Below, piece after piece: positions 12,324-53,502 of a DNA stretch of 64,000 nucleotides. How positions within the stretch are numbered: position 1 is the stretch's first letter; every line of letters begins with the position of its first letter. Below the pieces are notes generated by a model. The model was not told the DNA's origin. It did no database searches and saw only the letters and a list, made by a program, of their open reading frames with translations. Source of the DNA: an uncultured Gemmatimonadales bacterium (GTDB lineage Bacteria; Gemmatimonadota; Gemmatimonadetes; Gemmatimonadales; GWC2-71-9); the NCBI GenBank assembly GCA_963828735.1, contig CAWHFW010000005.1, positions 1,984,001-2,048,000 of the forward strand, written 5' to 3'. A program made the translations under genes and the position numbers.

Positions 12324-12364
12324 GAGCGGGAGCGGTGAGCGGTGAGCGGTGAGCGGTGAGCGGT
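12324..12364 (+). repeat. Heptamer tandem array (GAGCGGT)x5 plus one partial unit
   Basis: Perfect units at 12330, 12337, 12344, 12351, 12358, preceded by GAGCGG. Confidence 0.97.
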
Positions 12365-12410
12365 GGATGGGGTAGGGAGTGGTAGGGCATTGTTGCAAGA
12401 GGAGTTCCCA

Positions 12411-12462
12411 CACCGCTCACCTCTTACCGCTCACCGCTCCCCGCCAGCCCACCCTCCCGCCC
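12411..12462 (+). repeat. Inverted heptamer array (ACCGCTC)n plus C-rich arm complementary to 12296-12365
   Basis: ACCGCTC ACCTCTT ACCGCTC ACCGCTC CCCGCCA; CCACCCTCCCGCCC (12449-12462) pairs with GGGCGGGAGGGGTGG (12296-12310). Confidence 0.85.
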
Positions 12463-12526
12463 CATACCGCCTCTGCCCGCGCGATCATGATGCCGGTGCG
12501 CCTCGGCTCTTCCGCAATCGTTGTCT

Positions 12527-12901: not shown

Positions 12902-12943
12902 CTACCTCTATCCCGTCGCCAGCTCCCCTCCCCCCTCCCCGTT

Positions 12944-12990
12944 CCCGCTCACCCCTCACCGCTCCCGCTCACCGCTCCCGCTCACCGCCC
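12944..12990 (+). repeat. Degenerate (ACCGCTC/CCGCTC)x7 array overlapping the iadA stop codon
   Basis: CCCGCTC ACCCCTC ACCGCTC CCGCTC ACCGCTC CCGCTC ACCGCCC; encodes the iadA tail GGERER* on the minus strand. Confidence 0.9.
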
Positions 12991-14156
12991 CCTGCTCCCT
13001 CAAACGCCCCCCGCACCACCGGCCGCCCCGCCCTTACGTGCCACCGCCCGCGAGCCATCACGTCCGCCACCTTGCCGTCCTGACTGAGCACCACCAGGTC
13101 CGCGGCCGCGCCCACCGCGAGCCGGCCCTTCCGCTCCAGTTTGAGCAGGCGCGCCGGATTGCTGGTGAACGCGGGCAGCACCCGCTCGAGCGGCTGCCCG
13201 CACCGAAGCAGCGCGGCGAGCGCGTCGCCGGTGGCGGACGGCGCCCCGACATCGATGCCCACGACCCGGCCCTCCGCGTCGAGCAGGGGCAGGCACCCGC
13301 CGCCGTCCGAGCTCACCGTGACGCGGCCCGCCGGCAAGCCCGCGTCGAGGTACCGCACGAGGGCTTCCTCCGCCGGCCACGCGTCCTCGCCGTCCTCGAC
13401 CGGAAACGCCGTGATGTCCACGGTGCATCCGCGCTCGGACAGCGCCATCGCCTCCTCGAACAGTCGCCGCTTGCGGTTGACGTGGGTCGGGTTGAAGACC
13501 TCCGCCGGCAGCTCGCTCCGGTCGAGCGCCTGCCGCACGGGCTCGAGCCCGGCCTCGCCGTCGCCCACGTGCAGGTGCAGGATGCCGGCTTTTCCGCTCA
13601 TGAGCCCGCCGACGTGCGCGTCGGCCGCGATGCGGAGGAGCTCGTCGTGCGTCGGCTGGCTCGAGCGATGGTCGCTGATGGCGAGCTCGCCCACCCCGAG
13701 CACCAGGTCGATGAGCACGATGTCGAGTCGGACGCTGCCGGTGGCGGTGGTGGGAGGGTAGTGGTAGCCGCCGGTGTGACAGAACGCGCTCAAGCCCTCC
13801 TGGATCAGCCCGCGCGCGACGGTCACCAGCTCGGCCGTGGTACGCACCGTGTCGTCGGTGCCAAGCACGCCGACCGCGGTGGTCACGCCGCCGCGCGTGA
13901 GCCGGCTCAACGCGACCGGCGGCACTCGGGTGTGCGGGCCCGCCTCGCCGCCGCCGCCCGTGAGGTGCACGTGACCGTCGACGAGGCCGGGAATGACCCG
14001 CCGGCCCTCGAGGTCCACCTCGGTCACACCCAGCGCGCGGTCGAGCGCCGGGACGCCGCGCCCGATCCAGACCACCGCCTCACCCGCGACCAGCAGGTCC
14101 TGCTTCCCGGTCGGCGCAGGATCGTACAGCTCGGCGTTCCTGAGCAGCGTCAGCAT
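12969..14156 (-). CDS. iadA: Isoaspartyl dipeptidase (beta-aspartyl peptidase, amidohydrolase family)
   Basis: PGLVDGHVHLTGGGGEAG, GVLGTD, GELAISDHRSSQPT, GKAGILHLHVGDG, PTHVNR, SSDGGG; start moved to ATG 14156 (MLTLLRNA). Confidence 0.95.
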   Translation of the reverse strand: MLTLLRNAELYDPAPTGKQDLLVAGEAVVWIGRGVPALDRALGVTEVDLEGRRVIPGLVDGHVHLTGGGGEAGPHTRVPPVALSRLTRGGVTTAVGVLGTDDTVRTTAELVTVARGLIQEGLSAFCHTGGYHYPPTTATGSVRLDIVLIDLVLGVGELAISDHRSSQPTHDELLRIAADAHVGGLMSGKAGILHLHVGDGEAGLEPVRQALDRSELPAEVFNPTHVNRKRRLFEEAMALSERGCTVDITAFPVEDGEDAWPAEEALVRYLDAGLPAGRVTVSSDGGGCLPLLDAEGRVVGIDVGAPSATGDALAALLRCGQPLERVLPAFTSNPARLLKLERKGRLAVGAAADLVVLSQDGKVADVMARGRWHVRAGRPVVRGAFEGAGGGERER

Positions 14157-31725: not shown

Positions 31726-31819
31726 GCGACACCCTCCATCGTCGTCGGGTCGAGGCCGAGCTGGACCGCGTGTAGCGGGTACCACGCGTACTAATAGTAG
31801 CGTGGCTTCCGCAGCACCC

Positions 31820-34488
<2,669 letters not shown>

Positions 34489-34637: not shown

Positions 34638-35033
34638 TCAGGGCCCGACCGTGATCGTCCCCACCATGTTCGGGTGGATCGCGCAGTGATAGCCGTAGGT
34701 GCCCGCCTGCAGTTGCACCAGGTATGTGGCCCCCGCCCCCAGCGGCTGCGAGGTGGCGAACGCCCCATTGTCCGAGGCAATCTGATGGGCCACCGCCGTG
34801 CCGCCGTACGCGCCCCCGCCGTCCGTGTTGACCCAGCGCACGGTCACGTCGGCCGCTTCGCCCAGGCTGAGCTGCTTGGGGTTGGGGCTGAACGCCGTCG
34901 TGGTGAGCTGAGACGCGCCCTTCACGATGTCGATGTCCCCCGGCGTGGGACTCGGTCCGGTGCTGTTGTCGGACCCGCAGGCGGCCGCGAGACCCAGGCT
35001 CAGCGCGTAGATCGCGATTGGCAGTCGGTGCAT
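34638..35033 (-). CDS. Cupredoxin (plastocyanin/amicyanin-like) lipoprotein
   Basis: Lipobox LAAAC; FSP, VRWVN, upstream His (AHQI) and type-1 Cu loop YHCAIHPNMVGTITV. Confidence 0.88.
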   Translation of the reverse strand: MHRLPIAIYALSLGLAAACGSDNSTGPSPTPGDIDIVKGASQLTTTAFSPNPKQLSLGEAADVTVRWVNTDGGGAYGGTAVAHQIASDNGAFATSQPLGAGATYLVQLQAGTYGYHCAIHPNMVGTITVGP

Positions 35034-35097
35034 CGTGCGTCATCCTTCCCGTTCGATGGTGGTCGTCGGCGATAATGATGCGCCGCACAGGCGCGCG

Positions 35098-35134
35098 GAT
35101 AGCTCTCCGCCGACAGCTCTCCGCCGATAGCTCC
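35098..35134. repeat. 14-bp tandem repeat, about 2.6 copies (GAYAGCTCTCCGCC)
   Basis: GATAGCTCTCCGCC GACAGCTCTCCGCC GATAGCTCC between the MipA stop and the cupredoxin start. Confidence 0.9.
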
Positions 35135-35974
35135 TTAGAACCGGTACCCCACCCCCGCTCCGCCCGCGACCTGCTCGCGGCGCCGCACCAACGGGCTGTT
35201 GGCGGCCGCGTCGGCAAGCCACTCCAATCCCCCGAATCCGATCAGAGACCAGCGAGGCGAAACGGAGTAGATGAGCGAGAGCCCGACGCCGAGGTGACGC
35301 AGTCCTCCGTCCGGCCGATACGGGCCGCTGTCGTCGGGTTCCAGTCGCCCGTCTCCCGCGTCGATGAGCGCCTGCCGCCGTGCCGCTTCGGCGTCGGTGA
35401 TCCCGAATTCCCGCCGCATCTGCTTGCCATCGGCGAGCGCCGCTCCGGCCCCGGCGACCAGCAAGGTTCTGCCGACCAGCCTGGTATAGACGATGCGCGT
35501 GGTCTGGATCAAGCCGGCGCCATCGTTCACGCCCTTCGACACGGCGACGATCCCCTCGAAGGCCCCGGTGCGATAGCTGAGGCTCGCGCCTGCGGTGGCG
35601 ACGGCGTCGCGGTCGTCCATCTCCGCGAGGGCATCCCCGCGTGACGCCGGGCGGCTGTCCTGCGCGCCGAGCTCGACGGCGAGCCTCACGTGCGACGTCC
35701 GGATGGGGTACGCGCCCAGCGCGAATCCGAGCCCGGTGCTGCTGGGGCCGAGATAGACTCGATCGCGGAAGCTCGCGCTGACCAGCGGGTACGGCACCAC
35801 CCGTGATTCGTCCGAGCCGGGATAGCGCGGGTAGGTGAGGACCCCCGCGCCCACGTTGATGTTCCAATCGGGAGCCGGAGGCTGTGAGTCCTGCGCCTGC
35901 CCGGCGCCCGACTCCTGTGCGAGGAGCCGGACCGGAACGGCCAGGGCGAGGACGATCGTGGGCCTGATTCGCAT
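35135..35974 (-). CDS. MipA/OmpV family outer-membrane protein
   Basis: Signal peptide; VGAGVLTYPRYPGSD...VVPYP, FGITDAEA, Y.PDGG, AANSPLV, terminal GVGYRF. Confidence 0.88.
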   Translation of the reverse strand: MRIRPTIVLALAVPVRLLAQESGAGQAQDSQPPAPDWNINVGAGVLTYPRYPGSDESRVVPYPLVSASFRDRVYLGPSSTGLGFALGAYPIRTSHVRLAVELGAQDSRPASRGDALAEMDDRDAVATAGASLSYRTGAFEGIVAVSKGVNDGAGLIQTTRIVYTRLVGRTLLVAGAGAALADGKQMRREFGITDAEAARRQALIDAGDGRLEPDDSGPYRPDGGLRHLGVGLSLIYSVSPRWSLIGFGGLEWLADAAANSPLVRRREQVAGGAGVGYRF

Positions 35975-36046
35975 GCGCTGTTCCTGCGGCTCCGGAGAAC
36001 GAACTGCGCCACGCACGAGCGACTGTGCCGGCGCCGCGGACTCCGG

Positions 36047-38985: not shown

Positions 38986-40185
38986 TCACGGATGGCAGAC
39001 GATGTCCTGATCGTACTGGGTGATGTCGCCCGGGCCGACCTTGAGCCGCACCGTCTTCCGACCCCGGCCCGCCACGTTCTCCGGCAGCTCGTGCTGCATC
39101 GCGATGCCCTCTACCTGCCCGCCACCGTCGTCGTACCGGGTGATCTGGTGATCCGCGACCTCCGCCTCGTAGGGCTCGCCGGCAGGCGCACCGGTGGCCG
39201 GATCCACTGGCGTCAGGCGGAGGCGGCCCGAGGCGTGGAACTCACTCACGAGTGCGCCCGACGGATTCACCCGCACCTCCTTGCGCAGCTCGACCGGCCC
39301 CTGCGCGTGCAAATACTCATCGGCGCTCGCCGTGCAGAAAGGCCTGGGAATGATCTGGTCGAAGTTGATCACGAACTGCTGCGTCGTCCCGACTGCCGCT
39401 GGCGCGCTCCCGCCCAGGGCAAACCGGGTGGCCCGTCCGTCCGTGGCGATGCCGACCGGCCCGCTCACCTGGCCCGCGGGGCCGCCGATGAGGGCGCGCA
39501 GCTCCGGCGGCAGCAGGTTGTAGATGGTCGGGGGGATCTCGCGGAACGTGGGTGCTCCGTTGATCTGTGCTGTCGGTGCGGGCGCCGCCGCCAAGAGCCC
39601 GCTCCTCGCCAGGTCCGCCGTCACCAGTTGCTCCGCCAGCTCCCAGCTCAGCACCTGATGGTCCGTGGTGCCGGGAATGAGCAGCTCGAAGTGCGCGTTG
39701 CCGAGCGTGAGCGGGCCCGCCTGAAACAGGCGAACGTGGAAGCGCACGGGACCGAACACGCCGCACGCCAGCTGCACGGCGCTCCCGACCCAGCCGCGTT
39801 CGGCGCCATAGCCGGTCTGGAGATCACCGATCGCGTCAGTCCAGGTACAGGTGAACGGCGCGACCGACGGGAAGCCGAACGCGGTCCGGTCACCCGATAG
39901 CGCGAGGAGTGCGGCGCGGATGGCGCGAGGATCCGCCCGACCGCTGAAGACGAGGTTGATCGGATCCTGCGGTGTGCCCGAGAAATCGGCTCCGGTGTAG
40001 GGCCAGATCGCGAGGGAGCCCGGGTCGGCTGGAAGCGAGACCAGTGTAAGCGGTGGCGCCGCCTGCGCGCCTAGGGACGGACCGGCCGGGTCGGCAGGAG
40101 GCGTGTCGCGATCGCAGGCCGCGAGGGCGCACGAGAGCAGGAGTGCGGCGGCGACACGGCCGCGGAAGAACTGTGAAGGCTGCAT
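38986..40185 (-). CDS. Hypothetical lipoprotein (399 aa)
   Basis: ATG 40185 after GGAG; lipobox ALAAC; globular body (QDPINLVF...RFHVRLF...NAHFE); no family recognised with confidence. Confidence 0.8.
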   Translation of the reverse strand: MQPSQFFRGRVAAALLLSCALAACDRDTPPADPAGPSLGAQAAPPLTLVSLPADPGSLAIWPYTGADFSGTPQDPINLVFSGRADPRAIRAALLALSGDRTAFGFPSVAPFTCTWTDAIGDLQTGYGAERGWVGSAVQLACGVFGPVRFHVRLFQAGPLTLGNAHFELLIPGTTDHQVLSWELAEQLVTADLARSGLLAAAPAPTAQINGAPTFREIPPTIYNLLPPELRALIGGPAGQVSGPVGIATDGRATRFALGGSAPAAVGTTQQFVINFDQIIPRPFCTASADEYLHAQGPVELRKEVRVNPSGALVSEFHASGRLRLTPVDPATGAPAGEPYEAEVADHQITRYDDGGGQVEGIAMQHELPENVAGRGRKTVRLKVGPGDITQYDQDIVCHP

Positions 40186-40228
40186 GGAGACGCTCCGGGC
40201 GATGGGGGAAGCCAGCGTGCGACGCGAA

Positions 40229-40260
40229 ATCCTGGCTTCCGCGGTCAAGCGATGGTCAAG
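40229..40260 (-). promoter_or_regulatory. SARP-type direct repeat box 1 plus -10-like hexamer
   Basis: Minus strand CTTGACC-atcg-CTTGACC (40260-40254, 40249-40243), 8 nt, then CAGGAT; upstream of ATG 40185. Confidence 0.7.
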
Positions 40261-40400
40261 TCAGGGGATCAGGAGGAACCGGCAGGCCCTGACGGTCGCG
40301 GGACGAGCGCCAGGCGAATCGCGCGGGCAGGCTGCCCGCTCGGACATGGGGCTTGTCCGGGAGTAGGCGCGAAGGTTGTAACGGAGGGCTCGAGCGGCGG

Positions 40401-42299
40401 TCAGGTATCCTCGTCGGCCGCCTCGAGCAGGCGCCGGCGTTGTCCCGGGGTGAGCATGTCCCGTTCGACCACCTGCTGGACGATGCGGGCCACGAACCCG
40501 TATCCGCGCGGCTCGGAGACGAGCCAGTGATGCCACTCGGCCTCGTCGAGCGCGCGGTGCACCGCATCGAGCGGCTCGCCAAGCGCCCTGGCGATACGGG
40601 TGGCGGCCACGCGGTCGCCCAGCACGGATGCCGCGGCGAGGACCCGCTGGGCCTCCGGTGAGCGCCGGCGGAACCCGATACGGATCGCTGCGACGACCGC
40701 GTCGGGCAGATCGCCGGGCAGGCTCTGATCGAGCGTGCGCTGCGGGTCGGGCCACGCACTCGACGTCGCCCCGAGGTCCAGCCCGAGGGCCACGGCCCGG
40801 AGCAGCTCGACGGCGATGAGCGGCAGGCAACCCGAATCAAGGGCCACCCGTCGGACGACGCGATCCAGCTGGACCGAGTCATACCCGGGCAACAGGCGCT
40901 CGGCGAGCTCGCGGAGCGCCGTCGTCGTGAACGGCGCCGTGTGGATGGCCGCACCGCCCAGGTCGCGGCCGATGCGGCTCCTGAGATCATCCAGGTCAGG
41001 TCTCGGCACGTGGTGAGAGAGCGTCAGCACCACGATCACAGGCGCCGCGGTCAGGTCGCGCAGCAGCGCCACGAGCGAGGCGGCAGAGTCGTCGTCGAGC
41101 CACTGGGCGTCGTCGACCGCGAGCACCACCGGCTGCTCCGCCGCGGCAGTCCGCGTCACCTCGGCGAGCGCTCGTCCCAGAGAGCACGGCGCCGCCGCCA
41201 CGGAGGAAAAGCGCTCGGCCCACTCCGGAAGCGCGGCCGCCAGGGCCGCGATGGCGTCGGGCGTCGCACCGGCGATCCCCGCGGCGTCCCGCAGCCCTCC
41301 GCGAGCGAGCACCAGCAGGCCGCTCCATGGCTGGGTTCGATCACCCTCGACGGCGCGCGCCGCCGAGACCGCCGCGCCGTCGAGACGCAGGCGGGCGAGC
41401 AGCTCGTCGGCGAGCCGCGTCTTTCCCGAGCCGATCTCGCCTTCGATGAAAAGCACCGCGGCGCGGCGCGTGGTGACCGAGGTGGCTGCGGCATCGAGCA
41501 GCCGCTGCAACTCCGTCGCGCGACCGGCGAGGGGCAGCCGGTCGAGCACGCCGGGCGCCTCGGCGAGGGGACCCGGTTCGGGACGCACCAGGTGCTGCTT
41601 CGCCACACGTTCGGCGAGATCGTCGGTGGCGCGTTCCGGGATGACATCGAGCTCCGCCAGGAGCGCGACGAACCGGGAGTGCTCCTCGAGCGCGGCAACG
41701 CGATCGCCGGCGAGCGCCAGGCTCCGCATGACCGCGCGCACGGCGCGCTCGGCGCGAGGGTCGAGCCGCAGGGCACGGCGCGCGGCCCACGCAGCCTCGG
41801 CGGCCTGGCCCGACCGGAGCAGGCTCTCCGCGTACTGGACCAGCACGTCCACCGAGCGCCCCCGCCAGTGGGTGCGCTCGGCGCCGAGCCAGTCCTCGAA
41901 CGCCGACGCGTCGTCGAGGCCGAAACCCTCGAGGAATTCTCCGGTCACCAGCGCGGCCGCGGCGCTCCAGTCCTCTCGGGCGGCTAGCGCCTCGAACTCG
42001 TCCAGGTCGAGACGGACGGCGTCGGGGCTCAGGCGCAGGAGCCCGCCCTCGCCGCCGATCGCCTCATTTCCCAGATGCCGGCGGATGTGCCCCAGCGCGA
42101 CGTTGAGCGAGTGCCTTGCTCTCGCTTCCTCGCTCTCCGCCCACAGCAGGCCGATGAGGTGCTCGCGCGTCCTGCCGCGGCGACCGGAGCGCGCCAGATA
42201 CACCAGGAGCGCCAGATGCTTCTTCCAGAGCAGCTCGGGCGGCGCCATCGCGCCGTCGAGGGTGAGCTCGACCGGGCCCAGTGTTCGGCAGCTCGTCAT
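40401..42299 (-). CDS. SARP-family activator: wHTH-BTAD-AAA_16 (STAND) with no C-terminal TPR region (632 aa)
   Basis: ATG 42299; LGPVEL, ALLVYLA, TREHLIGLLW..ARARHSL, GEFLEGF..FEDWL, LDPRAE; GEIGSGKTRL, VDDAQWLD, SGCLP; ends just after the winged-helix region. Confidence 0.9.
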   Translation of the reverse strand: MTSCRTLGPVELTLDGAMAPPELLWKKHLALLVYLARSGRRGRTREHLIGLLWAESEEARARHSLNVALGHIRRHLGNEAIGGEGGLLRLSPDAVRLDLDEFEALAAREDWSAAAALVTGEFLEGFGLDDASAFEDWLGAERTHWRGRSVDVLVQYAESLLRSGQAAEAAWAARRALRLDPRAERAVRAVMRSLALAGDRVAALEEHSRFVALLAELDVIPERATDDLAERVAKQHLVRPEPGPLAEAPGVLDRLPLAGRATELQRLLDAAATSVTTRRAAVLFIEGEIGSGKTRLADELLARLRLDGAAVSAARAVEGDRTQPWSGLLVLARGGLRDAAGIAGATPDAIAALAAALPEWAERFSSVAAAPCSLGRALAEVTRTAAAEQPVVLAVDDAQWLDDDSAASLVALLRDLTAAPVIVVLTLSHHVPRPDLDDLRSRIGRDLGGAAIHTAPFTTTALRELAERLLPGYDSVQLDRVVRRVALDSGCLPLIAVELLRAVALGLDLGATSSAWPDPQRTLDQSLPGDLPDAVVAAIRIGFRRRSPEAQRVLAAASVLGDRVAATRIARALGEPLDAVHRALDEAEWHHWLVSEPRGYGFVARIVQQVVERDMLTPGQRRRLLEAADEDT

Positions 42300-45076
42300 G
42301 CCGCGCAGGCCCGGCCACCCGCGCGCGCCACGGCCGCGGCCTGCAGTGGCCGCATGTCGGCCTCGCTCCCGCTCCAGAGCTCGACCACTCTGCGGAGCGT
42401 GGCGCACCCGGCGACGGTGTCGGCGGCCGTCGCGCCGGATGTCAGGAGGGCCTCGCCACGCCGCCAGCGCACGTACGTGCCGAGTGCCGCGTCGATCTCG
42501 CCGGCTTGAGGCGCGCCCACGGGCCAGCCCTCGAAGTCCGATCCGTCGATCCAGCGCAGGTCCCGCTCGGCGGCGGCGACGTTGCCCCGCGCCATGTGCC
42601 AATCGGCGCGGAGCAGATGGTAGACCGCCCCGGCGAACGGATCGGGAGGCTGGTTCACGCTCACCGCGCCGCGAACCGAGTCCGAGACGTCGAGCGCCCG
42701 CGAGAGGTCACCACCCTTGCCGGCGATGACGGCGCGGAGCAGCACACCGAGCGGGGAGCCGGGCGCCAACTGCTCGAGCCGAGTCGCCTGGCCACGTGCG
42801 GCAGCCGTGTCGCCGGAGGCGACGTGTCCCAGCGCGAGGGCCCACCGGATCCGCGTCTCCAGGCGGGCGGTGGTCGTGTCCGCCAGCATCTGCTCCAGCG
42901 GCTCGCGCCAGCGAGGTGCGGACGCCGGAATGACGGAGAGCCCGACCAGCCGCGGGATGACCTCCCATTCGGCCCGCTGAAGGCGGACCTCGGGGGAGGG
43001 CCAGTCGGCGATGGACGAATCGAGCTGCGCGAGCGCCTCGGATGTCCGGCCCAGGGCCAGCAGCCCGATGGCAATGCCGTTCCGTGCGCTCGCGCGCGCC
43101 GAGTCGGTCGACGACTCACGATCGAGGAGGATGCGGCAGAGACCGATCTGAGCTCCGGGAATGTCGAACCAGGGAGCGCCGAGCCGTGCGACCTGCGACA
43201 CGCCGGCGAGCGTCGCGGAGTCGCCCGTGCGCTCGAGCCACCAGCGCGCGAGTCGGCCGCGCCACGGGCGGAAGCGCTCGTCATAGGCCAGCTTCATGAG
43301 CCGCACCTTGTCGAGGTCGCCCGGCCATGACTTGACCTCGATGGCTTGCCGGAGAGCGAGCGTGTACTGGGCGTGCTCTTTCCTCCCGGCGCGAAGATCC
43401 GCGGCGAAGATGTGGTTGTAAGGGTCGGCGAACGAGGAATCGAGCGCGATCGTCTCGCGCATGCCGCGAATGGCGAGCTCGATGTCCCGCCCGACCAGCG
43501 GTCCGCGGTGGAAGAGCTCGTGCGCGTAGAGATACTGCAGGTAGGCGTCGGGCCGTGCGTGCGACACCACCGAGTCGAGCCGCCGGAGCCGGCGGTCGAC
43601 GTCGGGCTCGAGGAACGCCTTCACGACCGCGCGGTCGGTCGGCCGAAGGCGATCCCCGAGGCGCCCGTCCAGCTCGCGCAGGTCCCCGAGATAGTCGTAG
43701 GGGCGCCGCTCCCAGTGCCTGACGTTGGCCAACCGCCAGCGTGCCAGCGCAAACGTGGAGTCGGCATCGATCGCGGCCTCGTACCGCTGCTCGGCGAGCG
43801 TCCACTCGTCCCGGTCGTACGCCGCCTCGCCCTGGAGAAAGCTCTTCAACGCCTCGAACGGCACGCCGGCGAAGTCCCGCAGCTCCCCGACTCGGGGCTC
43901 GAGCTCGGGCGCCACGATGTTGAGCACCGGCAACGACAGTCGCTCGGTGAGCCCGACGAGGTCGGCCACCGTGCCGGTCACCTCGACGTACTCCTTGGCG
44001 CCGCGCCAGGAGTAGAGGGTGAGGCCCACCCGCACGCGATCGCCCGACCGCCTCGCCTGCCCGTGCGCCACCCACTGCACGCCGAGGTCACGCGGGGCCT
44101 GATTCTGAATTCCGCCCGCGTCGTAGCCGGTCTGCGCCGCCCATCGCGCGATCCGGCGCGGCGACGTCATGTGGAGCCCCGAAACGTCACTCAAGGTCAG
44201 GGACAGCAGGTGGGCCATCGCGGTCCCGAGCGAATCTCCGGCCGGGCCTCCGATCGCTTCGAGCGGGAGCACGGCGATCTCGTTCGACGGCGGCCCGGGT
44301 GGCCGGCGCAGCCAGTGCCAGGCGGCCGCGCCCGTGAGGGTCAGTACCGTGAGGGCCAACAGCGCGAGCCCCGCCACCCTGATGGGCCCGCTCGCCAGGG
44401 TGAGCCTCCGGCGGAACGAGGCCGCGTGGGGGTCAGGCGCGAGCGCACATCGGAGGGCCGGCCGCAGGCGGAGCGGGACCGCCGCGAGCGCCTCGCGGCT
44501 CGTGCCTGCAGCCTCCCACCGTCGGCCCGTCACCGCCTGGTAGATGACGCGCGAGACCAGCACGAGTCCGGTGCGCTCGGTGCTCGAATCGGCTGGAGCG
44601 GCGCCAATGCCGTCGAGCACCAGGCGCCCGGGTTGTCGTACCACCGTGTCTGGCGACAGTTGGGGATGCGCGACGCCCCGCGCGCGCGACGCCTCGAGCG
44701 CCGCAAGCAGCTCGAGGCCGTAGCGTATGGCCTCACCTACAGGTACGGGCCCACTTGCCAGATGCTCGGCGAGCGGCTCCCCCGGCACGTGCTCCAGCGC
44801 GGCGTACGCGAAATCTCCGAAGGCGTCGGCCCGGTGGACTGAGCGGACGCCGGGATGACCGACGCGAGCGAGCAGGCGGATGCTCGCCACGAACGCCTCC
44901 GCGCGCGCCGTGGTGCGCTGGTCGGGAGCGAGCATCACCAGCAGGACCGCCCGGTCGAGCCGGAGATCCTGCGCCAGGACGCGCACGAGCCCGTCCTCCT
45001 CGCCGAGCACGCGCTCCAGCCGATATTCCCGGGCCAGGCCCGTGCGATCCCACGCCAGATGTTCGATGTCGATCAT
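42296..45076 (-). CDS. Pseudokinase - TM - TolB_N-like - TPR protein
   Basis: ATG 45076 (ATGA overlaps at both ends); kinase fold with LGEEDG, AVLLV (no Lys), [42 protein letters not shown]; TPRs. Confidence 0.85.
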
Positions 45077-47913
45077 CGCCGGCACCAGTCCGCCACGGCG
45101 TGCAGCCGTGCGGTCGCGGGGAAGAATCCCGGCTCGGCATGCGACCACGCCTCCTCGAGACGCGTCGCATGGTCACACGCGGCCTCGCGCCGGTTTTCCC
45201 GCCGATCGAGCTCGGCTCGAAGCAGCCGCGCGTACGACCCGAGCGCCCAGTCGACGTCAGCCGGCTGCGCCTCCGCGCTGGGCCAGCCCACCGCGTCCGT
45301 ATTCTCGTACCAGAGCCAGCTGCGGTCGGCCTCGTCGGCTCGGCCGTTCAGGCCGCGCCACCACTGACCGCGCAGCAGGTGCAGCGTCGCACGAAAGAAC
45401 GGATCCGGCGCCGCGCCGGCCGAATCCACCGCGAGCGCCGGTGCCGAGAGGTGGAGGGCGGCAGGCGAATCCCCCTGAGCCGCGGCGCTCATCGCGGCGA
45501 GCAGCAGCCCGAGCGGGCCATCCTCGGGCTCCCGCTCGGTTACGACAGCCCGCCAGCTGTCTGCCTCGACCGCGTCGCCCCGGGCCAATGCATCCACGCC
45601 AAGCGCCCAGGCCGCGCGGGCGGTGGTGTCATGGTCGTTGAGCGTGACGAGCGCGCGCCGGCCTTCCTCGCGCTCGGCATCGGTGATCCCCGGTACGCCA
45701 AGCGCGGGCAGGAGCACCCTCCACTCGGCTGCCTGCTGGTGGGCCTCGCCGGGCTCGGGGAACAGGCCGGCGGCCGAATCGAGCTGCGCGAGCGCCCCGT
45801 GCGGCCGGCCCAGCGCTACCAGGGCGACTCCCTGCGCGAGATGCCCGCTCGCCCGGTCGATCGCGGTGGCCTCGTCGGGCGCCGTGAGCCGCCGGCCGAA
45901 TTCGAGCTCGAACGCCGGGAGGTCGAAGGCGAGCGCGCCGCGCGCGGCGAGCGAAAGCGCTTTGGGCGACGCGAGCAGCCCGCCAGCCGCGGGATCGAGC
46001 TTCCCGGGGCTGAAGCGCGCGGTCGAGGCGAGCCTCAGGAACTCCGGCAGGAAGATCTCGGACTCCTCGGGGCGGCCCGCCGTGCGCTCGAGCGAGTCGA
46101 GCGCCCGGGACGCTTCCTCCTTCCGACCGAGGCGAATGAGGGCCCAGGTAAGGTGCTCCCACGCCGGCGCCAGGCGCGGATTGGCCGCCGCGGCGCGCGC
46201 GAGCATGCGTGCGGCCTCCTCGAGCGGCCGGCCCGCGAGCGGGCCCCGGTGAAACAGCTCGTCACCGTAGAGCAGCATCGCCGTGGCGTTGGCGGTGTCC
46301 GAGGCGAGCGCGGACTCGTACGCGGCGAAGCGAGCGCCGCCGGACGGCGCGAATTGCGCGGCGATCAACAGGCTGTCGGTCCGCGGCAGGTCCCTGCCGT
46401 GCTGCGCGAACAGGTCGCGAAAGTTGTCGGGGAAGGGCGGCGTCGGACGGAGGGGCATCCAGCGCCGCGCGTTGCCCAGCCTCCAGGCGGCGAGCAGGAA
46501 CGTGGAGTCGATCGCCAGGGCATTGGCGTAATGGCGCTCGGCCGCGAGCCATGCGTCGTGCTCTACCGCCTCCTCGCCCTTCATGTACTCGAGGACCGCC
46601 GCACGGGAGAGCCGAATGCCCCCTCCGGGCATGAGCGGACCCAATCCCCTGCCCATGGTCGCGACGAGCAGTCCGCCCAGCGAATCGACGAGTGCGAAAT
46701 GGTCCCCCGAATCGCCGACGACGGCGGTGTCGAGCAAGGGCTTGCCGAGAGAATTCACCAGCGAGCCATGGATCTCGAGGCGCCCAGCGCTCCGCGTCAC
46801 GAAGCCGGAGACGCCAAAGGTGGCGCCCAACTCCGGTGTGAGGGTCCGAGATCGCATGGCCGTGGGCTCCCTCGATGCCCGCCAGGCCGTCGCGACCTCG
46901 GTGCTTGGCGGCATCCGGATCCCTGGAAGCGGCTCGAAGTACGACCGGGTTGCTCGGGTCAGCTCTCCGGCGAGACTCGTATCTCCGAGGGTCTCGTACG
47001 GGAAGACGACGACATCATACGCCGTGACCCGGCCCCACTTGTGGAGGTACACGGCCGCCACGACAACCAGCAGGGCGACCACGAGCAGCGACGGGAGCCC
47101 GAGAGGCGCTTGCCAGGTCGATGAGGGGCGTTCGAGCGAGACCAGGAATTCCTGGCCCGTGGACCACCGTTCCGCCGGATGGCTCCGAAGGGCCTTGGTC
47201 AGTGCCGCGCGGAGATGGCGAGTCACGCCCGGCCACTCCGCCTGCTCGACGCCGTGCAGCCGATCCCAGGGGTGACCGGTGGATGCCTCGTACAGGACCG
47301 CGCCAAGGGAGTAGAGGTCCGACAGCTTCGTGGCCTCCCGACCGGCTGCCTGCTCGGGGGCCATGTAGCGCGGTGTTCCCGGCAGCTCGTTCGGAGTGGT
47401 GAGCGTGTCATCAACGCTGTGGGGGACCGCCACGATCCCGAAGTCGCCGAGCAGGGCGCTGCCGTGCTCGAGAAAGATGTTGGACGGCTTGATATCCCGG
47501 TGGATGAAGCCCTGAGGATGCATCGCGCCGAGCGCCGACAGGACGTCCCGTGCGACGGCGATGGTCTCGGCCTCGGGGAGCCGACCATCGCGAAGGCGAT
47601 CCGCCAGCGTCCCCCCGTTCATCAGCGCCATGACGTAGTACGGGATGCCGTCCGCCACGTCGGCTTCGTAGACGGGGACGATGTTCGGATGGGTGAACCG
47701 CGCGGTGGTGCGCGCCTCCCGCAGGAATCGCTCGGCGAGGACGGCGGTCGCGCGCTCCGGCGGGAGGATCTTGATGGCCACCGGACGCTCGAGCACCGCG
47801 TCCCACCCCACGAAGACGATACCCATGCCGCCGGCGGCGAGCTCGCGCTCGACGACGATCCGCGGGGCAAGCGCGGCACGAAGGCGATGAAGGACCGACG
47901 GCGGTTGGCCCAT
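45073..47913 (-). CDS. Ser/Thr kinase - TM - TolB_N-like - TPR protein with intact catalytic motifs
   Basis: ATG 47913; [55 protein letters not shown]; TPRs. Confidence 0.9.
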
Positions 47914-47985
47914 GAGCCCGGGAGTTGTCGAGTGGATTCCCCAATACTGCGTGTCGCCAGGCGTCCCGGCAACCGCGGCGACCCG

Positions 47986-48018
47986 CTTGAGGCCCAATTG
48001 ACCGCCGGGCGGCAGCTT
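47986..48018 (+). promoter_or_regulatory. SARP-type direct repeat box 2 plus -10-like hexamer
   Basis: CTTGAGG-ccca-ATTGACC (47986, 47997), 9 nt, then CAGCTT; upstream of ATG 48045. Confidence 0.65.
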
Positions 48019-48044
48019 CGGTGCACCTGTCACCGGAGCCTCCC

Positions 48045-48431
48045 ATGTCGGTTCGCGCCCTACGTCGGCCCTGCCCACGCCGGGCTGCCACCCTCGTCCT
48101 CGTCCTGCTGGGCGCCTGCACCAGCTGGCGGGTGCAGCCCGTCGCCCCCGTGGAGCTGCTCGGCCAGTCCACGCCGTCCGAGGCGCGAGTGCGGCTCCAC
48201 GACGGCCGGAAGGTGATCGTCCGCCAGCCGCGGCTCCGCTCCGACTCCGTGGTGAGCGGGTTTCCGGGCGACAGCTCCGCGCTGGCCGTCGCCGGGATCG
48301 ACAGCATCGAGCTCAGAAAGGGTGACGCGGCGAAGTCGATCGGGCTCGTGCTGCTCATCGTCGGCACGCCAGCCATTCTCTGTGCCGCCACGTGCGAGTT
48401 CGGCCCCGACTTCTCCGCGCCCATCGAGTGA
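48045..48431 (+). CDS. Small hypothetical lipoprotein with C-terminal hydrophobic helix
   Basis: GGAG RBS before ATG 48045; lipobox LLGAC; C-terminal [16 protein letters not shown]. Confidence 0.75.
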
Positions 48432-48438
48432 GTCGGCT

Positions 48439-48471
48439 CTTGAGTCATCCTTGACTGCTGCATGGCATCGT
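48439..48471 (+). promoter_or_regulatory. SARP-type direct repeat box 3 plus -10-like hexamer
   Basis: CTTGAGT-catc-CTTGACT (48439, 48450), 9 nt, then CATCGT; upstream of ATG 48513. Confidence 0.7.
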
Positions 48472-48512
48472 CTCTCGCGGGCGTTGGTCGACACCCCCCG
48501 AGCGGAGGAGCC

Positions 48513-49160
48513 ATGTCACGCACACCCCGAGTTCTTCGAACCGTCAGTCTCGGACCGAACCTCACCGGCCAGGGACATCCAAACCTGCGGATCCTGCTCG
48601 GCAGTCTGTGCCTGTTGGCTGTCACGCTCGGATCGCCACCCGCCGCGGCAGGCCAGACCTGCTTCCGTGGCCGACCGGAGCCAAGGTGCAGCGGCTTCAC
48701 GGTGTTGGAGTTCACAACCGCCATCCGCCTCAATCAAAAGCCCGCCCCGACGGACGAGGGCATGGTGTTGGGCTACTGGAGTGGCGGCTATCTGAGGAAC
48801 ATCGGCCAGCGATCCGCGTTGGGAGCGGCGTTCAAGCTCACGGGCGACACCGACGGCTACCGGTACGGGCCGGTGCTACGGTACCGTCGCTGGCTCAGTC
48901 CTACCTCCAGCATCGACTTCTCCCCGGGGCTCTTCGTGGCGGGGAAAGACAACTTCACCGCCTTGCGGTTCCCGAGTCCCACGGCCGACGTCGCCTTGAA
49001 TTATCGCGACTGGGTGGGGCTCGCTCTCGGCGTCGATGCGCTTCGGCAGGCTGACGGAGGTACCCATTGGCAGTGGCACGCGGGGATGCGGCTCGGCACG
49101 TGGCTCGCACCCCTCGCCACGCTCGGGCTCTTCGTCCTGGCGGCGGCAACGTACGACTAG
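48513..49160 (+). CDS. Hypothetical exported beta-strand-rich (small OM-barrel-like) protein
   Basis: GGAGGAG RBS; signal peptide ending AAG-Q; Cys pair; alternating amphipathic strands (YWSGGYLRN, LRYRRW, WHAGMRLG); hydrophobic C-terminus. Confidence 0.75.
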   Translation: MSRTPRVLRTVSLGPNLTGQGHPNLRILLGSLCLLAVTLGSPPAAAGQTCFRGRPEPRCSGFTVLEFTTAIRLNQKPAPTDEGMVLGYWSGGYLRNIGQRSALGAAFKLTGDTDGYRYGPVLRYRRWLSPTSSIDFSPGLFVAGKDNFTALRFPSPTADVALNYRDWVGLALGVDALRQADGGTHWQWHAGMRLGTWLAPLATLGLFVLAAATYD

Positions 49161-49253
49161 GCAGACGACAAGATGGGCGGACCGCTGCTACCAGGCGGCC
49201 AGGGTCCGGGGCTGAGTGTTCGCAAGACGCGATGATCTCATGCGGTGAGTTCA

Positions 49254-49286
49254 CTTGACGGCGCCTTGAGCGGACATGCACACCGT
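49254..49286 (+). promoter_or_regulatory. SARP-type direct repeat box 4 plus -10-like hexamer
   Basis: CTTGACG-gcgc-CTTGAGC (49254, 49265), 9 nt, then CACCGT; upstream of ATG 49343. Confidence 0.7.
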
Positions 49287-49342
49287 TGGGTCACAGCTGG
49301 GCCGGCACCCTGCCGGCCCCTACCCATGCCAGGAGGCTCTCA

Positions 49343-49765
49343 ATGCGTCGGCTCGCACTCGTTCTTGCTGGCCTCAGCTTCACTACCGGCTGTGTTCACA
49401 CGGGCGCTACGATGCTGAACGCGTCGGCGAAGCTTCCACCGATCTGCCCCGAGGGAGTTCAGTTGTTTACGGGCGCCGAAAAAGTCGGCCAGCAGTATCA
49501 CGAAATTGCCGTCCTCACCTCCAACGGGGACGCCGACATGACCTCCGCGGAGGGCATGGCCAACTCACAGCGGAAGAAGGCGGCAAAGCTCGGAGCCAAC
49601 GGCGTCATCCTGGGGGAGCAGAAGGATCCGAGCACCGGCGCGAGGATCGCCGATGCCTTCCTGGGCACGGGCGCCGTGCGGAAGGGCAAGTCAATAGCCA
49701 TTTACATCCCGGCTGACAGCTCTCGCGTCCAGGAAGCCTGCGGGGCGAAGGTTGCGAGGCGGTAG
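49343..49765 (+). CDS. Hypothetical lipoprotein, possibly YbjQ/RcsF-like fold
   Basis: AGGAGG RBS; lipobox FTTGC; RKKAAKLGANGVIL motif. Confidence 0.75.
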   Translation: MRRLALVLAGLSFTTGCVHTGATMLNASAKLPPICPEGVQLFTGAEKVGQQYHEIAVLTSNGDADMTSAEGMANSQRKKAAKLGANGVILGEQKDPSTGARIADAFLGTGAVRKGKSIAIYIPADSSRVQEACGAKVARR

Positions 49766-49862: not shown

Positions 49863-49914
49863 CTCTTGACAATCTAGAGAAGACCCCGCATGGTCCCTCC
49901 AGTCTATCTGGAGG
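49863..49914 (+). promoter_or_regulatory. Two related 17-bp palindromes (putative PadR operators)
   Basis: CTCTTGACAATCTAGAG (49863-49879, contains TTGACA) and CTCCAGTCTATCTGGAG (49897-49913, overlaps the GGAGG RBS). Confidence 0.75.
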
Positions 49915-49920
49915 ACGACC

Positions 49921-50262
49921 GTGGCGACACCCGCCGATCTGCTCCCCGGCACCCTCGAGCTCCTGGTCCTGAAGGCGCTGTCCCTCGAGCCGATGCACGG
50001 CTGGGGCATCGGCCAGCGGATCGACCAGCTCTCCCGCGACGTGTTCAAGGTCCAGCAGGGCTCGCTCTATCCCGCGCTTCAGCGGATGCTCCGGAAAGGC
50101 TGGATCGGGTCCGAGTGGCGCGCGAGCGAGAATGGCCGCCGCGCCCGGTACTACGCCCTCACCGCACGCGGCCGGCGCCAGCTCGAGGCCGAAACCGCGG
50201 CCTGGCGACGCACCGCCGCCGCGGTGGACGGGATCCTCCGGGTCCGGCTGGCCGACCTGTGA
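49921..50262 (+). CDS. PadR-family regulator (acidobacterial ADOP-associated type)
   Basis: LLPGTLELLVLKAL, MHGWGI, GSLYPALQRM, SENGRRARYYALT. Confidence 0.95.
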   Translation: MATPADLLPGTLELLVLKALSLEPMHGWGIGQRIDQLSRDVFKVQQGSLYPALQRMLRKGWIGSEWRASENGRRARYYALTARGRRQLEAETAAWRRTAAAVDGILRVRLADL

Positions 50263-52881
50263 TCGCCGACCTCCTGGAGCGGCTCCGGGCGCTGCTCTTC
50301 CGTCGCCGGTGGCAGCGCGATCTGGACGAGGAGCTCCGCTTCCATCTCGAGCAGGACGAGGCCGCGCGCATCCGGGCCGGTGCCGACGCCGCGACGGCCC
50401 GCCGCGAAGCCCTGCTCGCGTTCGGCGGCGTCGAGCAGTGGCGCGAGGCCACTTTCGACGCGAGCGGTGTACGCCCGCTCCACGATCTCGCGGCCGACGT
50501 TCGCTTCACCCTGCGCGGCCTCCGGCGCAATCCCGGCTTCACCGCCACGGCGGTCCTGGTGCTCGCGCTGGCCATCGGCGCCGCCACCGCGGTGTTCAGC
50601 GTCGTGCGCACGGTGCTCCTGAGCGACCTGCCGTATCCCCACGCCGACCGGCTAGTGCGGGTGTACGAGCAGAACTCGCCGACCAACCGCTGGACCCTCT
50701 CGGTGGTGGACGTCCAGGCGATTCGCGAGCAGCAGCGGAGCCTCGATGCCTTCGGCGCCGCGCGCATGGGCGTGGCCGGGCTCGCGGGCGGCGGCGAGCC
50801 GGAGCAAGTCGCCGTCGCCTGGGTCACGTCCGGTCTCTTCTCAGCGCTCGGCACCACGCCGGCCGCCGGCCGCCTCATCGAGGCCGGCGACGAGCGCCCC
50901 GACGCACCGCCGGTGCTCGTGGTCTCCGCGCGGCTGGCGGCGGAGCGCCTCGGCGGCGTCCGGGCGGCGGTCGGCCGCACCCTGTCGCTCGACGGCGTGA
51001 GCCACACCGTCGTCGGCGTGCTGCCGCCCGGCCTGGACGAGCTCGCTGGCATGCAGGCCGCGGCGTGGCCGGTGCTCAAGACCTCGACGCCCACCCGGCG
51101 CGGGCCGTTCGGGCTCCGCGGCATCGGGCGGCTCAAGCCTGGAATCGCCCTCGACGACGCGGCCCGCGATCTCGCCGGGATCAGCGAGCGCATCTATCCG
51201 CTCTGGCGCGCCGGTTTTCGGGACAGCGTCGCCCGGCTCACCCCCTATTCGCTCCGCGACTCCATCGTGGGCGGCGCCACTCAACAGCTCCGGCTCTTTG
51301 CCGGCGCGGTGCTGCTGGTCCTGCTCGGCGCGCTCGCCAACGTCGCCACGCTCCTCTTGGTGCGGGTCTCGTCGCGCGGTCACGAGCTCGCGGTCCGCGC
51401 GACGCTCGGCGCGTCCCGGCCCAGGCTCGCGCGCCTGGTGCTCACGGAAGGGCTGGTGCTCGCGGGGCTGGCCACGCTCGCCGGCATCGGGCTCGCCGCG
51501 TTGGGACCCCGGCTGGTGAACGCGATCGCGCCGCAGCTGCCGCGCGCGCACGAAATCGTGCTGGACGCCCGCGCAGTCGCCGTTGCCGTGGCGCTCGGCG
51601 CGGCGAGCGGGCTCCTGGTGAGCCTCTCTCCGGTCGCGGCCGTGCTCGGCGGCCGCCTCGTGTCGCTGCGCGCGGAAGGGCGCCGAGCCGGAGGCACGCG
51701 GTGGACCGGTACGGTGCGGGGCGTCCTGGTGGCGGCGGAGTTCGCGCTGGCCATCCCGCTGCTCCTGGCCGCCGCGCTTCTGGCCAACAGCCTCCTGCGC
51801 TTGCAGCGGGTCGATCCCGGCTACGACGCCGGGTCGAGCTTCACCGTCTGGCTGGCGCCCCCGGCGGTACGCTATCCGGACACCACCGAGGTGCGGAAGT
51901 TCTGGCGCGGAGCGGTCGCCTCGGCGCTGGAGACGCCGGGTGTCGTCGCCGCGGGGCTCGCGACCTCGGCGCCACCCGACAACCAGGGCGACGTCAACAA
52001 CTTCAACCTGATCGCCCACCCGGTGGCCGAGGGCGGCGCCGAGCCGACCTCGCCGTGGTCGTCGGTCACGCCGGGCTTCTTCGCCGCGCTGGGCATCCCG
52101 CTGGTGGAGGGTCGACTCTTCGGCGATGCCGATTCCGCCGGCGCGCCGCCCGTGGCCGTCGTGAGCCGCTCGTGGGCCTCGCGTTACTTCCCGCGCGAGA
52201 GCGCGATCGGGCAGCAGATGGTGGAGGGCGGCTGCTACGAGTGCTCCCGAACGACGATCGTCGGCATCGTGGGCGACGTGAAGTACCAGGGTCTCGCCGG
52301 GAACGGCGAAGGCGTGTACACGCCGCTGCTGCAGTCGCAGTCCCGCACGGCGGCGTTGTTCGTGCGGACCGGCGCCGCGCCCGCAGAGCGTCACGGCTCC
52401 CGTGCTGGAGCGCCTCAGGGCTCTGGATCCCGAGTTGCCGCTCTCGGCCCGGCTCATGACCGACGAGCTGCGCCGCGCGCTCGCCGATCCGGCCCGGTGG
52501 ACGGCCGTGCTCTCGGCCTTCGGGGCGGCGGCGCTCGCGCTCTCGGCGTTGGGGATCTTCGGGCTGGTGTCCTACCTGGTGCGGCGACAGCGGCGGGAGA
52601 TCGGCGTGCGGCTCGCGCTGGGCGCCGAGCCGCGCGCCATCCTGCGGATGGTCCTCGCACGCGGCATGCGCTACGTGATCGCGGGAACCCTGGTCGGCCT
52701 CGTCCTTACGGTGGTGAGCGGGCGCTGGCTGGGCTCACTGCTCTACGAGGTGGGGCCGAACGATCCGCTGACTCTGGGCAGCGTCACGGCGATGCTGCTG
52801 ATCGCCGCGCTGGCGGCGTGCCTCGTCCCGGGCCTCAGGGCCGCGCGGATTCGGCCGGTCGAGGCGATGGCCGAGGAGTAG
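50259..52881 (+). CDS. ADOP-type duplicated MacB/FtsX ABC permease with frameshift near 52388
   Basis: GTGA overlap with padR; LDEELRFHLE, DVRFTLRGLRRNPGF, ELAVRATLGA, RVDPGY; C-terminus (REIGVRLALGAEP...AARIRPVEAMAEE) continues in ORF 52402..52881. Confidence 0.9.
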
Positions 52882-52896
52882 CCGTCTGGGTCGCGC

Positions 52897-53502
52897 TCAA
52901 TCGGGCCGAAAGAAGTCCCACGTCTCGAGCCCCGGCGCGATCGTCGCCTGTCCCACCACCCGGTACCCCATGTGCCGGTACAGCGCCACGTTCCGCTCGC
53001 TCTCGGTGCTGAGCGTCACCCCGCGCGAATCCGCCCGATCCCGCGACATCGCATGCACCTTCTCCAGCAGCGTCCGCGCGAGCCCGCGCCTCTGATGATC
53101 GGGCACCACGGCCAGCATGTTCACGTGGATGTTCGGCTCGTCCACCCCGGTCGACTCCCACGCCCGCACGCAGTCGTCGAAGCGCGCCCGCGCATCCGCA
53201 CCGAGCGCGGCCCAGGTCCGCTCGCGGAGCGGCTCGAGCTCCGGCGGCTCGACCCCGCCGGGCAGGGTACACACCGCGGCGGCGACCAGCTCGCCGCCCT
53301 CCGAGATCCCCAGGATCGGGTCATCCTGCAGCACCCGCGCGCCGTGGAAGAAGCCGATGAGCGTGCGGTGCCGCGCGGCGTAGTCGCCCCGATCACCCAC
53401 GATGTAACGCATCACGGGGTAGTCGACGAAGGCCTCGCACAGCACGCGGACGACTTCGTCCGCGGTGGCTCGGCCGTCGAGCAGTCGGGGAGCGTCGGTC
53501 AT
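52897..53502 (-). CDS. GNAT-family N-acetyltransferase
   Basis: ATG 53502; AFVDYP, MLAVVPDHQRRGLARTLL (acetyl-CoA motif A), NVALYRHMGY. Confidence 0.9.
   Translation of the reverse strand: MTDAPRLLDGRATADEVVRVLCEAFVDYPVMRYIVGDRGDYAARHRTLIGFFHGARVLQDDPILGISEGGELVAAAVCTLPGGVEPPELEPLRERTWAALGADARARFDDCVRAWESTGVDEPNIHVNMLAVVPDHQRRGLARTLLEKVHAMSRDRADSRGVTLSTESERNVALYRHMGYRVVGQATIAPGLETWDFFRPD

Follow-up and report, generated by a model that had tools for sequence, protein, structure and literature searches.

Introduction

Receptor Ser/Thr kinases abound in the genomes of Gemmatimonadota, where almost none of their outputs are known, and the question raised by the locus described here is what one such kinase might control. 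The locus lies at positions 38,986 to 49,765 of a 64,000-nucleotide stretch of DNA, referred to below as the window, from an uncultured Gemmatimonadales bacterium (GenBank assembly GCA_963828735.1, contig CAWHFW010000005.1, positions 1,984,001 to 2,048,000 of the forward strand). It consists of genes for a transmembrane Ser/Thr kinase (K1), a paralogue with a degenerate kinase domain (K2) and a SARP-type transcriptional activator, together with four flanking genes, mostly for lipoproteins, that are each preceded by the same direct-repeat box. The reading that we favour, with a probability of roughly 0.58, is a relay of the Gemmatimonadales from receptor Ser/Thr kinase to SARP, having surface lipoproteins as its output and K2 as a co-receptor. 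It is apparently a conserved signalling module that is undescribed in Gemmatimonadota.

Organization of the operon and its products

45073..47913, minus strand: K1, 946 amino acids (aa); kinase domain at aa 1-262, transmembrane segment at about aa 271-289, then a periplasmic alpha/beta and TPR region
42296..45076, minus strand: K2, 926 aa; pseudokinase-transmembrane-TPR paralogue of K1
40401..42299, minus strand: SARP, 632 aa; winged helix-turn-helix (wHTH), BTAD and STAND NTPase parts, no TPR, no FHA
47944..47972, minus strand: predicted operon promoter of ordinary sigma70 type, TTGCCG-17 bp-CAGTAT

All seven reading frames of the locus are open, and the original prediction was right in the order and coordinates of its three central genes, with kinase, pseudokinase and wHTH-BTAD-AAA products, as well as in their translational coupling, there being 4-nt ATGA overlaps at both the K1/K2 and the K2/SARP junctions. 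A TTGC-type -35/-10 match before K1, seen in the window and in several relatives, is probably an ordinary sigma70-type promoter of the operon, and no box was found pointing at K1. RNA data consisted of two runs, apparently of one data set, which held 6% of words and gave only short contigs of low depth.

K1 matches the Pfam Pkinase family (E 6.5e-37) and, weakly, TPR families. The Hanks-type VAIK Lys, HRD Asp and DFG Asp are all present, and across the K1 and single-kinase sequences compared none of them varies (33/33). Hydropathy gives one hydrophobic segment after the kinase domain in each of K1 and K2. In the PDB the periplasmic part of K1 matched nothing but designed TPR proteins (E at least 0.009), TPR look-alikes being found in Gemmatimonadota and Acidobacteriota, and its alpha/beta region is what we take to be a 'TolB-N-like' domain.

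The third product is a SARP-type activator, as had been proposed: an N-terminal OmpR-type wHTH is followed by a BTAD, which lies above the Pfam cut-off together with AAA_16, while Trans_reg_C (E 4e-5) falls below it. A structural model (pLDDT 89.7) had its best fold matches in AfsR (8k60/8hvr), EmbR and NLR/Apaf-1 proteins, and in a profile search of the PDB the best natural sequence match was EmbR (E 7.8e-10). At 632 aa, with AAA_16 and without TPR, it has the form of a medium SARP (about 600 aa, SARP plus nucleotide-binding domain) and not that of an AfsR orthologue (about 1000 aa, C-terminal TPR), and its best 120 family matches span 630-678 aa. The STAND module is recognizable from Walker A (GEIGSGKT), Walker B (VDDAQW), an invariant P493 as part of a GxP-like motif, and helical and winged-helix domains; the model ends after the winged-helix part, so that the C-terminal repeat sensor domain typical of STAND proteins is missing, and Pfam found no FHA domain. 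Across 59 family members the Walker A Lys is kept in 51 and replaced in 8, and no conserved Arg follows the sensor-1 strand, so the ATPase is, by these residues, partly degenerate. A family-specific loop at about 511-531 contains invariant W516, P517 and T522 (the last in 59/59), and T522, which looks exposed in the model, would be the best candidate phosphosite. A partly degenerate ATPase and an exposed-looking loop with an invariant Thr would fit control by phosphorylation.

The direct-repeat box and its link to the SARP

38986..40185, minus strand: gA, 399-aa lipoprotein with no Pfam family
40228..40260, minus strand: box and -10 of gA, CTTGAC CATCG CTTGAC N10 AGGATT
48045..48431, plus strand: gB, 128-aa lipoprotein
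47986..48018, plus strand: box and -10 of gB, pattern match
48513..49160, plus strand: gC, 215 aa, probably exported, no family
48439..48471, plus strand: box and -10 of gC, pattern match
49343..49765, plus strand: gD, 140-aa lipoprotein with a weak DUF4156 match (E 0.028, below cut-off)
49254..49286, plus strand: box and -10 of gD, pattern match
40373..40405, minus strand: degenerate fifth box just past the SARP stop, intact in close relatives, where it precedes a six-gene lipid-enzyme operon

The box CTTGAS-N5-[CA]TTGAS stands before all four flanking genes, which is what the original prediction had seen. Extended to the -10 element, the pattern HTTGAS-N5-HTTGAS-N11-RNNNT has exactly four matches in the window, all at these four promoters, and 0 of 100 shuffles had any match. 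The pattern was derived from the window sites and relatives, and a genome-wide spacing control is the fairer test: TTGAS-N6-TTGAS has 16 matches in the genome, against 1-7 at the nine other non-codon spacings. A matrix of 41 sites at relatives' loci reads CTTGAS-N5-CTTGAS, followed by A at +27 in 37/41 and by T at +31 in 39/41, which puts 20 bp between the first TTGACN and the -10 element. The predicted sites thus have the properties of a SARP box, direct repeats of 11-bp period lying over the -35 and about 8 bp from the -10. At afsS the AfsR sites overlap the -35, end 8 bp before the -10 and leave a spacer of 20 bp, according to the available text of PMC11301090, so the AfsR-like geometry suggested for the boxes stands. 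A plain -35 element was rejected as an explanation of the box because its spacers would be 20 and 9 bp.

The box also follows the activator across genomes. Strict boxes numbered 179 in 41 genomes, against 13 when the spacer was made 1 bp shorter, and in a family lacking the SARP only 2 were found in 8 genomes. Within the bacterial family to which this organism belongs, a box with its -10 was present in 34/39 SARP-positive but 4/20 SARP-negative genomes (39 chosen positives and 20 listed negatives, including the unpublished G084); the Fisher p of 5.6e-7 is overstated because the genomes are kin. One of the four boxed negatives, G137, carries a frameshifted kinase-SARP locus ringed by boxes. Among genera holding both SARP states the contrast agrees in g1, g16, g20, g35 and g40, is mixed in g13 and is blank in g12 and g17. 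Other SARPs, but no box, are present in most of the SARP-negative genomes, and another SARP of the present genome (C7:48021-48998) has its own box, three copies of CATGAC with an 11-bp period, facing a divergent lipoprotein-like gene. The proposed link of box and activator is therefore upheld as co-occurrence within one bacterial family. The box is strongly tied to this SARP family, and we regard it as very probably the site that the SARP binds.

A variant repeat, GTTGA[CG]-N5-GTTGAG, occurs on the minus strand of the same genome at C5:509471, 2511568 and 2512170 without a clear target open reading frame; another BTAD gene is located some 6-7 kb away from two of these copies.

A kinase-SARP pair as the conserved unit

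Among the best 80 matches, the named loci at 47-68% identity all come from Gemmatimonadota metagenome-assembled genomes (MAGs), mostly Gemmatimonadales, and other phyla contributed partial matches under 40%. By profile (E <= 1e-120) the SARP family is present in 79/251 genomes of the phylum: 73/114 in its own bacterial family, and 0/53 and 0/38 in two other large ones. Where a locus is given here as not found, this holds for the sampled genomes. Unpublished among these are G083 (in the triplet count), G084, G003 and G270, the last two entering only into tallies, and no conclusion rests on an unpublished genome alone.

The triplet had been proposed as the conserved unit, a view that had to be abandoned. 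Forty SARP loci were taken from outside the genus, about one or two per genus, from the profile matches, five of them repeating loci matched earlier. A single K1-type kinase lies directly upstream of the SARP in 33 of the 40 (two at contig ends, one with a 1.2-kb gap), with intact catalytic motifs wherever the kinase domain is visible, and tandem kinases were found in 0/40 within the 7 kb fetched. When 103 genomes of the genus itself were searched for K2, 27 gave a match; 19 of the genus, this one included, have the triplet, a probable 20th is split across contigs, and four others have a single kinase. The core is thus the kinase-SARP pair, and the triplet, restricted to 19-20 of 103 genomes of one genus, is on these comparisons a derived state.

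A second SARP subclade (SH-aLRT 100), represented in this genome by a 60% identical paralogue at C5:1764192, is paired with a different kinase, one bearing Big_2 repeats; judging from this pairing, the partner of the SARP has changed but has stayed a kinase. The K1, K2 and SARP trees are largely parallel (all trees were quick IQ-TREE runs with SH-aLRT support and no bootstrap). There are 98 kinase matches in the whole genome, 11 of them within the window, and since kinases are so dense, proximity alone is weak; the evidence is the repeated stop-start coupling. From this pattern it is probable that the adjacent kinase controls the SARP.

Elsewhere in the genome, BTAD and kinase domains share one open frame in a SARP-kinase fusion at C5:119934-121457 (including 120072-121160). 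At C5:776567-778163 there is a small SARP gene with a kinase gene following it directly.

K2 is a pseudokinase under selection

K2 has no Pfam kinase match and only weak matches to kinase profiles (NF033483, E 1.8e-7). In the window it is without the Gly-loop, the VAIK Lys, the HRD Asp, the DFG Asp and the activation segment, and so has lost all three residues of the catalytic triad, where the loss of one would suffice to call it a pseudokinase; its periplasmic part is 33% identical to that of K1 over 510 residues. Catalytic decay is graded among 17 K2 domains, the Lys remaining in 6, the HRD Asp in 9, the DFG Asp in 5 and the GGMG loop in none, and a few basal K2 (e.g., L124, L125) retain all three triad residues but without the Gly-loop and the catalytic-loop Lys/Asn. 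In a tree of the periplasmic parts, from which frameshifted, truncated and duplicate rows were excluded, the 18 K2 sequences fall into a single clade (SH-aLRT 100) with single active kinases of the same genus as its sister group. Its branching mirrors that of K1, which indicates a single origin of the triplet, through duplication or through the joining of two paralogues. The ratio of non-synonymous to synonymous substitution rates (dN/dS) is 0.15-0.47 in 13 K2 pairs and 0.07-0.27 in 8 K1 pairs, these pairs not being independent and some dS values lying near saturation; by this measure K2 is relaxed yet under purifying selection. With its catalytic motifs lost, its purifying selection and its single origin, the pseudokinase that was originally proposed is confirmed as such, and a decaying pseudogene is ruled out by the open frames and a dN/dS below 0.5.

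The beta2-beta3 hairpin of K2 is kept (A35, D37, L40, R42, V44), and 5 of the 16 invariant K2 columns fall in this hairpin, which holds, in 17/17 K2, what we take to be the equivalent of PknB Leu33. Wild-type PknB is stimulated by its kinase-dead form, an effect that L33D abolishes (bioRxiv 10.64898/2026.10.08.757607, in the portion available). By analogy, the retained Leu hints at a dimer contact of K2, although it is suggestive only. In one relative, G116 (L118:8789-10060), K1 ends cleanly after its alpha/beta domain and overlaps the start of a full-length K2, which leaves the TPR sensor on K2 alone. For K2 as an activating co-receptor we would put the chances at about even. Alternatively, the relay could be the same with K2 as a brake or decoy that damps the signal through binding to the ligand, to K1 or to the SARP; K2 keeps a full periplasmic domain beside a dead kinase domain that is under selection, the single-kinase systems of other genera work without it, which makes it a modifier, and pseudokinases also act as competitive inhibitors (PMC12599244, in the sections covered). 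Such a role is unlikely in our estimate, as the arrangement in G116 fits cooperation better than braking and the retained hairpin matches an activating interface.

The regulon and its output

The original prediction described the flanking genes as encoding exported proteins or lipoproteins. A lipobox is indeed present in three of the four; gC (48513) is the exception, lacking one but having a hydrophobic stretch that resembles a signal sequence. The target most often beside the SARP in relatives is gA, which has 875 homologues, none of those listed having a Pfam family for this part; its fold model reached a pLDDT of 45.5 (6 alignment rows) and atlas matches below 0.9. Boxed homologues of gB stand beside the SARP in relatives, and this genome has a boxed gB paralogue at C5:1007026. 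Homologues of gD are boxed in L121 and L123. For gC no homologue was found in the fetched loci, and its strand-like pattern suggests that it may be an outer-membrane beta-barrel.

A private regulon of four genes, as first imagined, was not upheld: 14 genes are boxed genome-wide, the four at the locus and ten elsewhere, among the latter three RCC1 and two Kelch propellers, a beta-helix protein and the gB paralogue. This count leaves out 8 of the 16 core matches, in which either the -10 or the leading C is missing, as well as two matrix matches with a broken core, the vestigial site and the C7 variant, and within it the gene assignments at C5:557288 and C5:1760777 are uncertain. A lipobox is present in 12 of the 14, compared with 305/4163 crude gene calls. 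The regulon is probably shared with the second SARP paralogue. Close relatives carry in addition a boxed operon between the SARP and gA.

L119:13121-18598, also in L002/L033, L035, L039, L115, L118 and L201: boxed six-gene operon

Its genes specify an alpha/beta hydrolase, a fatty-acid desaturase, two SDRs, a PAP2_3 protein and a Rce1-like protease, and it looks like an undescribed pathway of membrane-lipid modification. It is missing in the present genome, where the degenerate box alone remains. Taken together, the lipoprotein targets and the lipid-enzyme operon of relatives point to surface and membrane remodelling as the output.

An anti-phage or other conflict system, made of STAND protein and kinase, was also considered, and the kinases do give generic matches to the PADLOC models PD-T4-6 and Mad6. 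These matches are limited to the kinase domain, with none for the SARP or the targets, and no full-length PADLOC match with its partner genes was obtained. The targets are lipoproteins, beta-propellers and lipid enzymes, and the parallel trees also speak against defence, which we reject as extremely improbable.

Proposed mechanism and points against it

In the relay that we propose, the operon would be transcribed from its ordinary promoter, and a periplasmic or envelope signal would bind the alpha/beta and TPR domains and unite K1 with K2. The dead K2 would then activate K1 allosterically through a back-to-back contact of the N-lobes, as the retained residues and the PknB precedent suggest, and K1 would phosphorylate the SARP, an event taking the place of the missing ligand-binding TPR sensor, with T522 as the foremost candidate site. 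Finally, as in the action of AfsR at afsS, two SARP heads would bind CTTGAS-N5-CTTGAS over the -35 of promoters having a 20-bp spacer, and RNA polymerase would be recruited, a step that comparative genomics supports well. We infer phosphorylation of the SARP by the kinase from the operon coupling and the candidate T522, and a phospho-relay is likely on this sequence evidence; a complex prediction of the SARP with the K1 kinase domain, made with alignments (score 0.02, mark 0.32), counts neither for nor against it.

Several findings weigh against this relay. Others among the 98 kinases could act on the SARP, and the role of T522 may be structural. The Leu33 equivalent is invariant in active kinases too, so its retention in K2 may be a need of folding, and the truncated K1 of G116 comes from one MAG only. 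EmbR, a wHTH-BTAD-FHA protein, needs its FHA domain for PknH (PMC4601284, in the text available), whereas the present SARP has a STAND module and no FHA. On the DNA side, the SARP-negative genomes G125, G149 and G201 carry boxes, and the same genus has a family of SARP-STAND proteins of 1100-1160 aa (the 1130-aa family; L134-L141) whose recognition helix is similar and which in some cases lie close to boxes, although that family was not found in this genome. The upstream kinase is missing in 7 of the 40 loci from other genera, and three genomes that are 93-99% complete (G008, G011, G024) have lost both kinases from the locus but keep 8-12 boxes and an intact SARP, which is nested among the triplet SARPs.

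L011 (G024), L013 (G008) and L015 (G011): orphan SARP loci, same flanking context, kinases missing

The periplasmic part of K1 found no match in 4 of 5 orphan genomes (G008, G024, G162, G210) and a weak partial one in the fifth, so the cognate kinase appears to be dispensable there.

These orphans bear on an alternative in which the boxes are bound by the SARP but its switching is left, as in medium SARPs of Streptomyces, to a nucleotide or small ligand at its STAND module, the kinases being co-transcribed for a related job such as modifying envelope targets. Orphan SARPs whose boxes stay intact after clean loss of both kinases favour such a switch, as does the lack of an FHA domain, and medium SARPs of about 600 aa, made of SARP and NB-ARC parts, exist (PMC10972967, as far as its text was available). 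It is disfavoured by the translational coupling of the kinase across many genera (33/40) and the swap to another kinase type, and by the partial degeneration of the ATPase, and we hold it to be about as unlikely as the braking role of K2.

A further alternative is that of a guard or adaptor, whereby direct binding of the kinase or pseudokinase would hold or free the STAND protein without phosphotransfer, in the manner of plant ZAR1, which is held and released by RKS1. The SARP's STAND part resembles NLR/Apaf-1 modules and is without a sensor of its own, and the adjoining K2 is conserved. However, the ancestral partner of the SARP is a fully active kinase wherever the domain is visible, and orphan SARPs exist, and a guard model seems to us quite improbable.

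Through the kinase-to-SARP relay, a candidate substrate would be assigned to one kinase family, along with a DNA motif and a regulon, in 73/114 genomes of the bacterial family to which this organism belongs, and SARP-type activation with afsS geometry would extend beyond the Actinobacteria. In the K2 series, nature would have recorded the origin of a receptor pseudokinase. It could further be speculated, as a doubtful extension, that a sensor-less STAND activator, switched when an operon-coupled receptor kinase phosphorylates its T522 loop, makes up a Ser/Thr counterpart of two-component systems, and that in one genus the receptor has become an obligate heterodimer of active kinase and pseudokinase. 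If so, there would be living intermediates from a nearly intact to a fully dead K2, and one lineage with catalysis only on K1 and sensing only on K2, a division of labour between receptors for which HER2/HER3 offers an analogy. A 2025 review describes bacterial pseudokinases as largely unexplored by experiment (PMC12599244, in the sections covered).

Surrounding genes

The locus sits in a kinase island, with 11 Pkinase matches inside window positions 1-64000 and one at its edge, several of them in tandem at 15502-38779. At 31791-34488 (minus strand) a kinase-transmembrane-TPR gene is apparently split by a frameshift, the kinase part lying at 34488-32926 and the periplasmic part in another frame. 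Beside the kinase array, at 34638-36016 (minus strand), are a cupredoxin-like lipoprotein and a MipA-family outer-membrane protein, where a search found no box. On the other side, at 49866-53012 (plus strand), a PadR gene, preceded by a TTGACAATCTAGAGAAGA stretch, is followed by a MacB/FtsX permease whose C-terminal part is apparently in another frame (52402-52881). Translations at 6788-14156 (minus strand) resemble what we presume to be cyanophycin synthetase, cyanophycinase and isoaspartyl dipeptidase.

Comparison with known systems

As far as the full-text literature could be searched, most subscription papers aside, there is no report of a Gemmatimonadota kinase-SARP system, of this box or of a kinase/pseudokinase/SARP operon, and to that extent the novelty claimed for the combination holds. 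The main text of a kinome atlas preprint (10.1101/2025.01.12.632604), in its available form, contains 'Gemmatimonad' 0 times, although its supplements could list such a family, and the parts of the pseudokinase review PMC12599244 that were covered do not mention the system. Described membrane pseudokinases that resemble K2 include ActPs1-3, CP1, DYD, DLHK, GLW, EssB/YukC and MviN, with a deletion of the activation loop in ActPs3; in the descriptions available, none of these is presented as standing in tandem with an active receptor kinase of which it is the paralogue, within an operon of kinase and regulator. PknS/EcfK (ECF43) of Xanthomonas is similar in that a transmembrane Hanks kinase of a Gram-negative bacterium directly phosphorylates its cognate transcription regulator, but that output is an ECF sigma factor and not a SARP, and no pseudokinase is mentioned in the accessible text (PMC13147305).

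Among SARPs, the medium members CdaR, CpkO and FdmR1 share the size of about 600 aa, the nucleotide-binding domain and the lack of TPR. They regulate antibiotic gene clusters, whereas the present protein is set apart by its AAA_16-type module, its family-specific WP..TLDQ loop and the kinase to which it is coupled. The AfsK/AfsR paradigm, chosen at the outset as a frame, fits in box geometry and architecture: AfsR, the top fold match, is a wHTH-BTAD-STAND protein phosphorylated by Ser/Thr kinases, with two direct repeats over the -35, 8 bp before the -10, and a 20-bp spacer. It differs in being a large SARP with C-terminal TPR, where the present one stops after the winged-helix part, and in its afsS box, CGTT(T/C)ATCGNN as against CTTGAS-N5-CTTGAS; K1 scores 80 bits against the AfsK profile NF053615, far under the cut-off of 1300, and only here are kinase and SARP translationally coupled with lipoproteins as targets. 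The closest precedent is instead PknH/EmbR, in which a Ser/Thr kinase phosphorylates a SARP and raises its binding to promoters of cell-envelope genes (PMC4601284, in the text available). EmbR is distinguished by its C-terminal FHA domain, and PknH/EmbR has no pseudokinase partner, another box and a home in another phylum; what the two systems would have in common, if the kinase step inferred here is correct, is a SARP that governs envelope genes and is itself the target of a Ser/Thr kinase.

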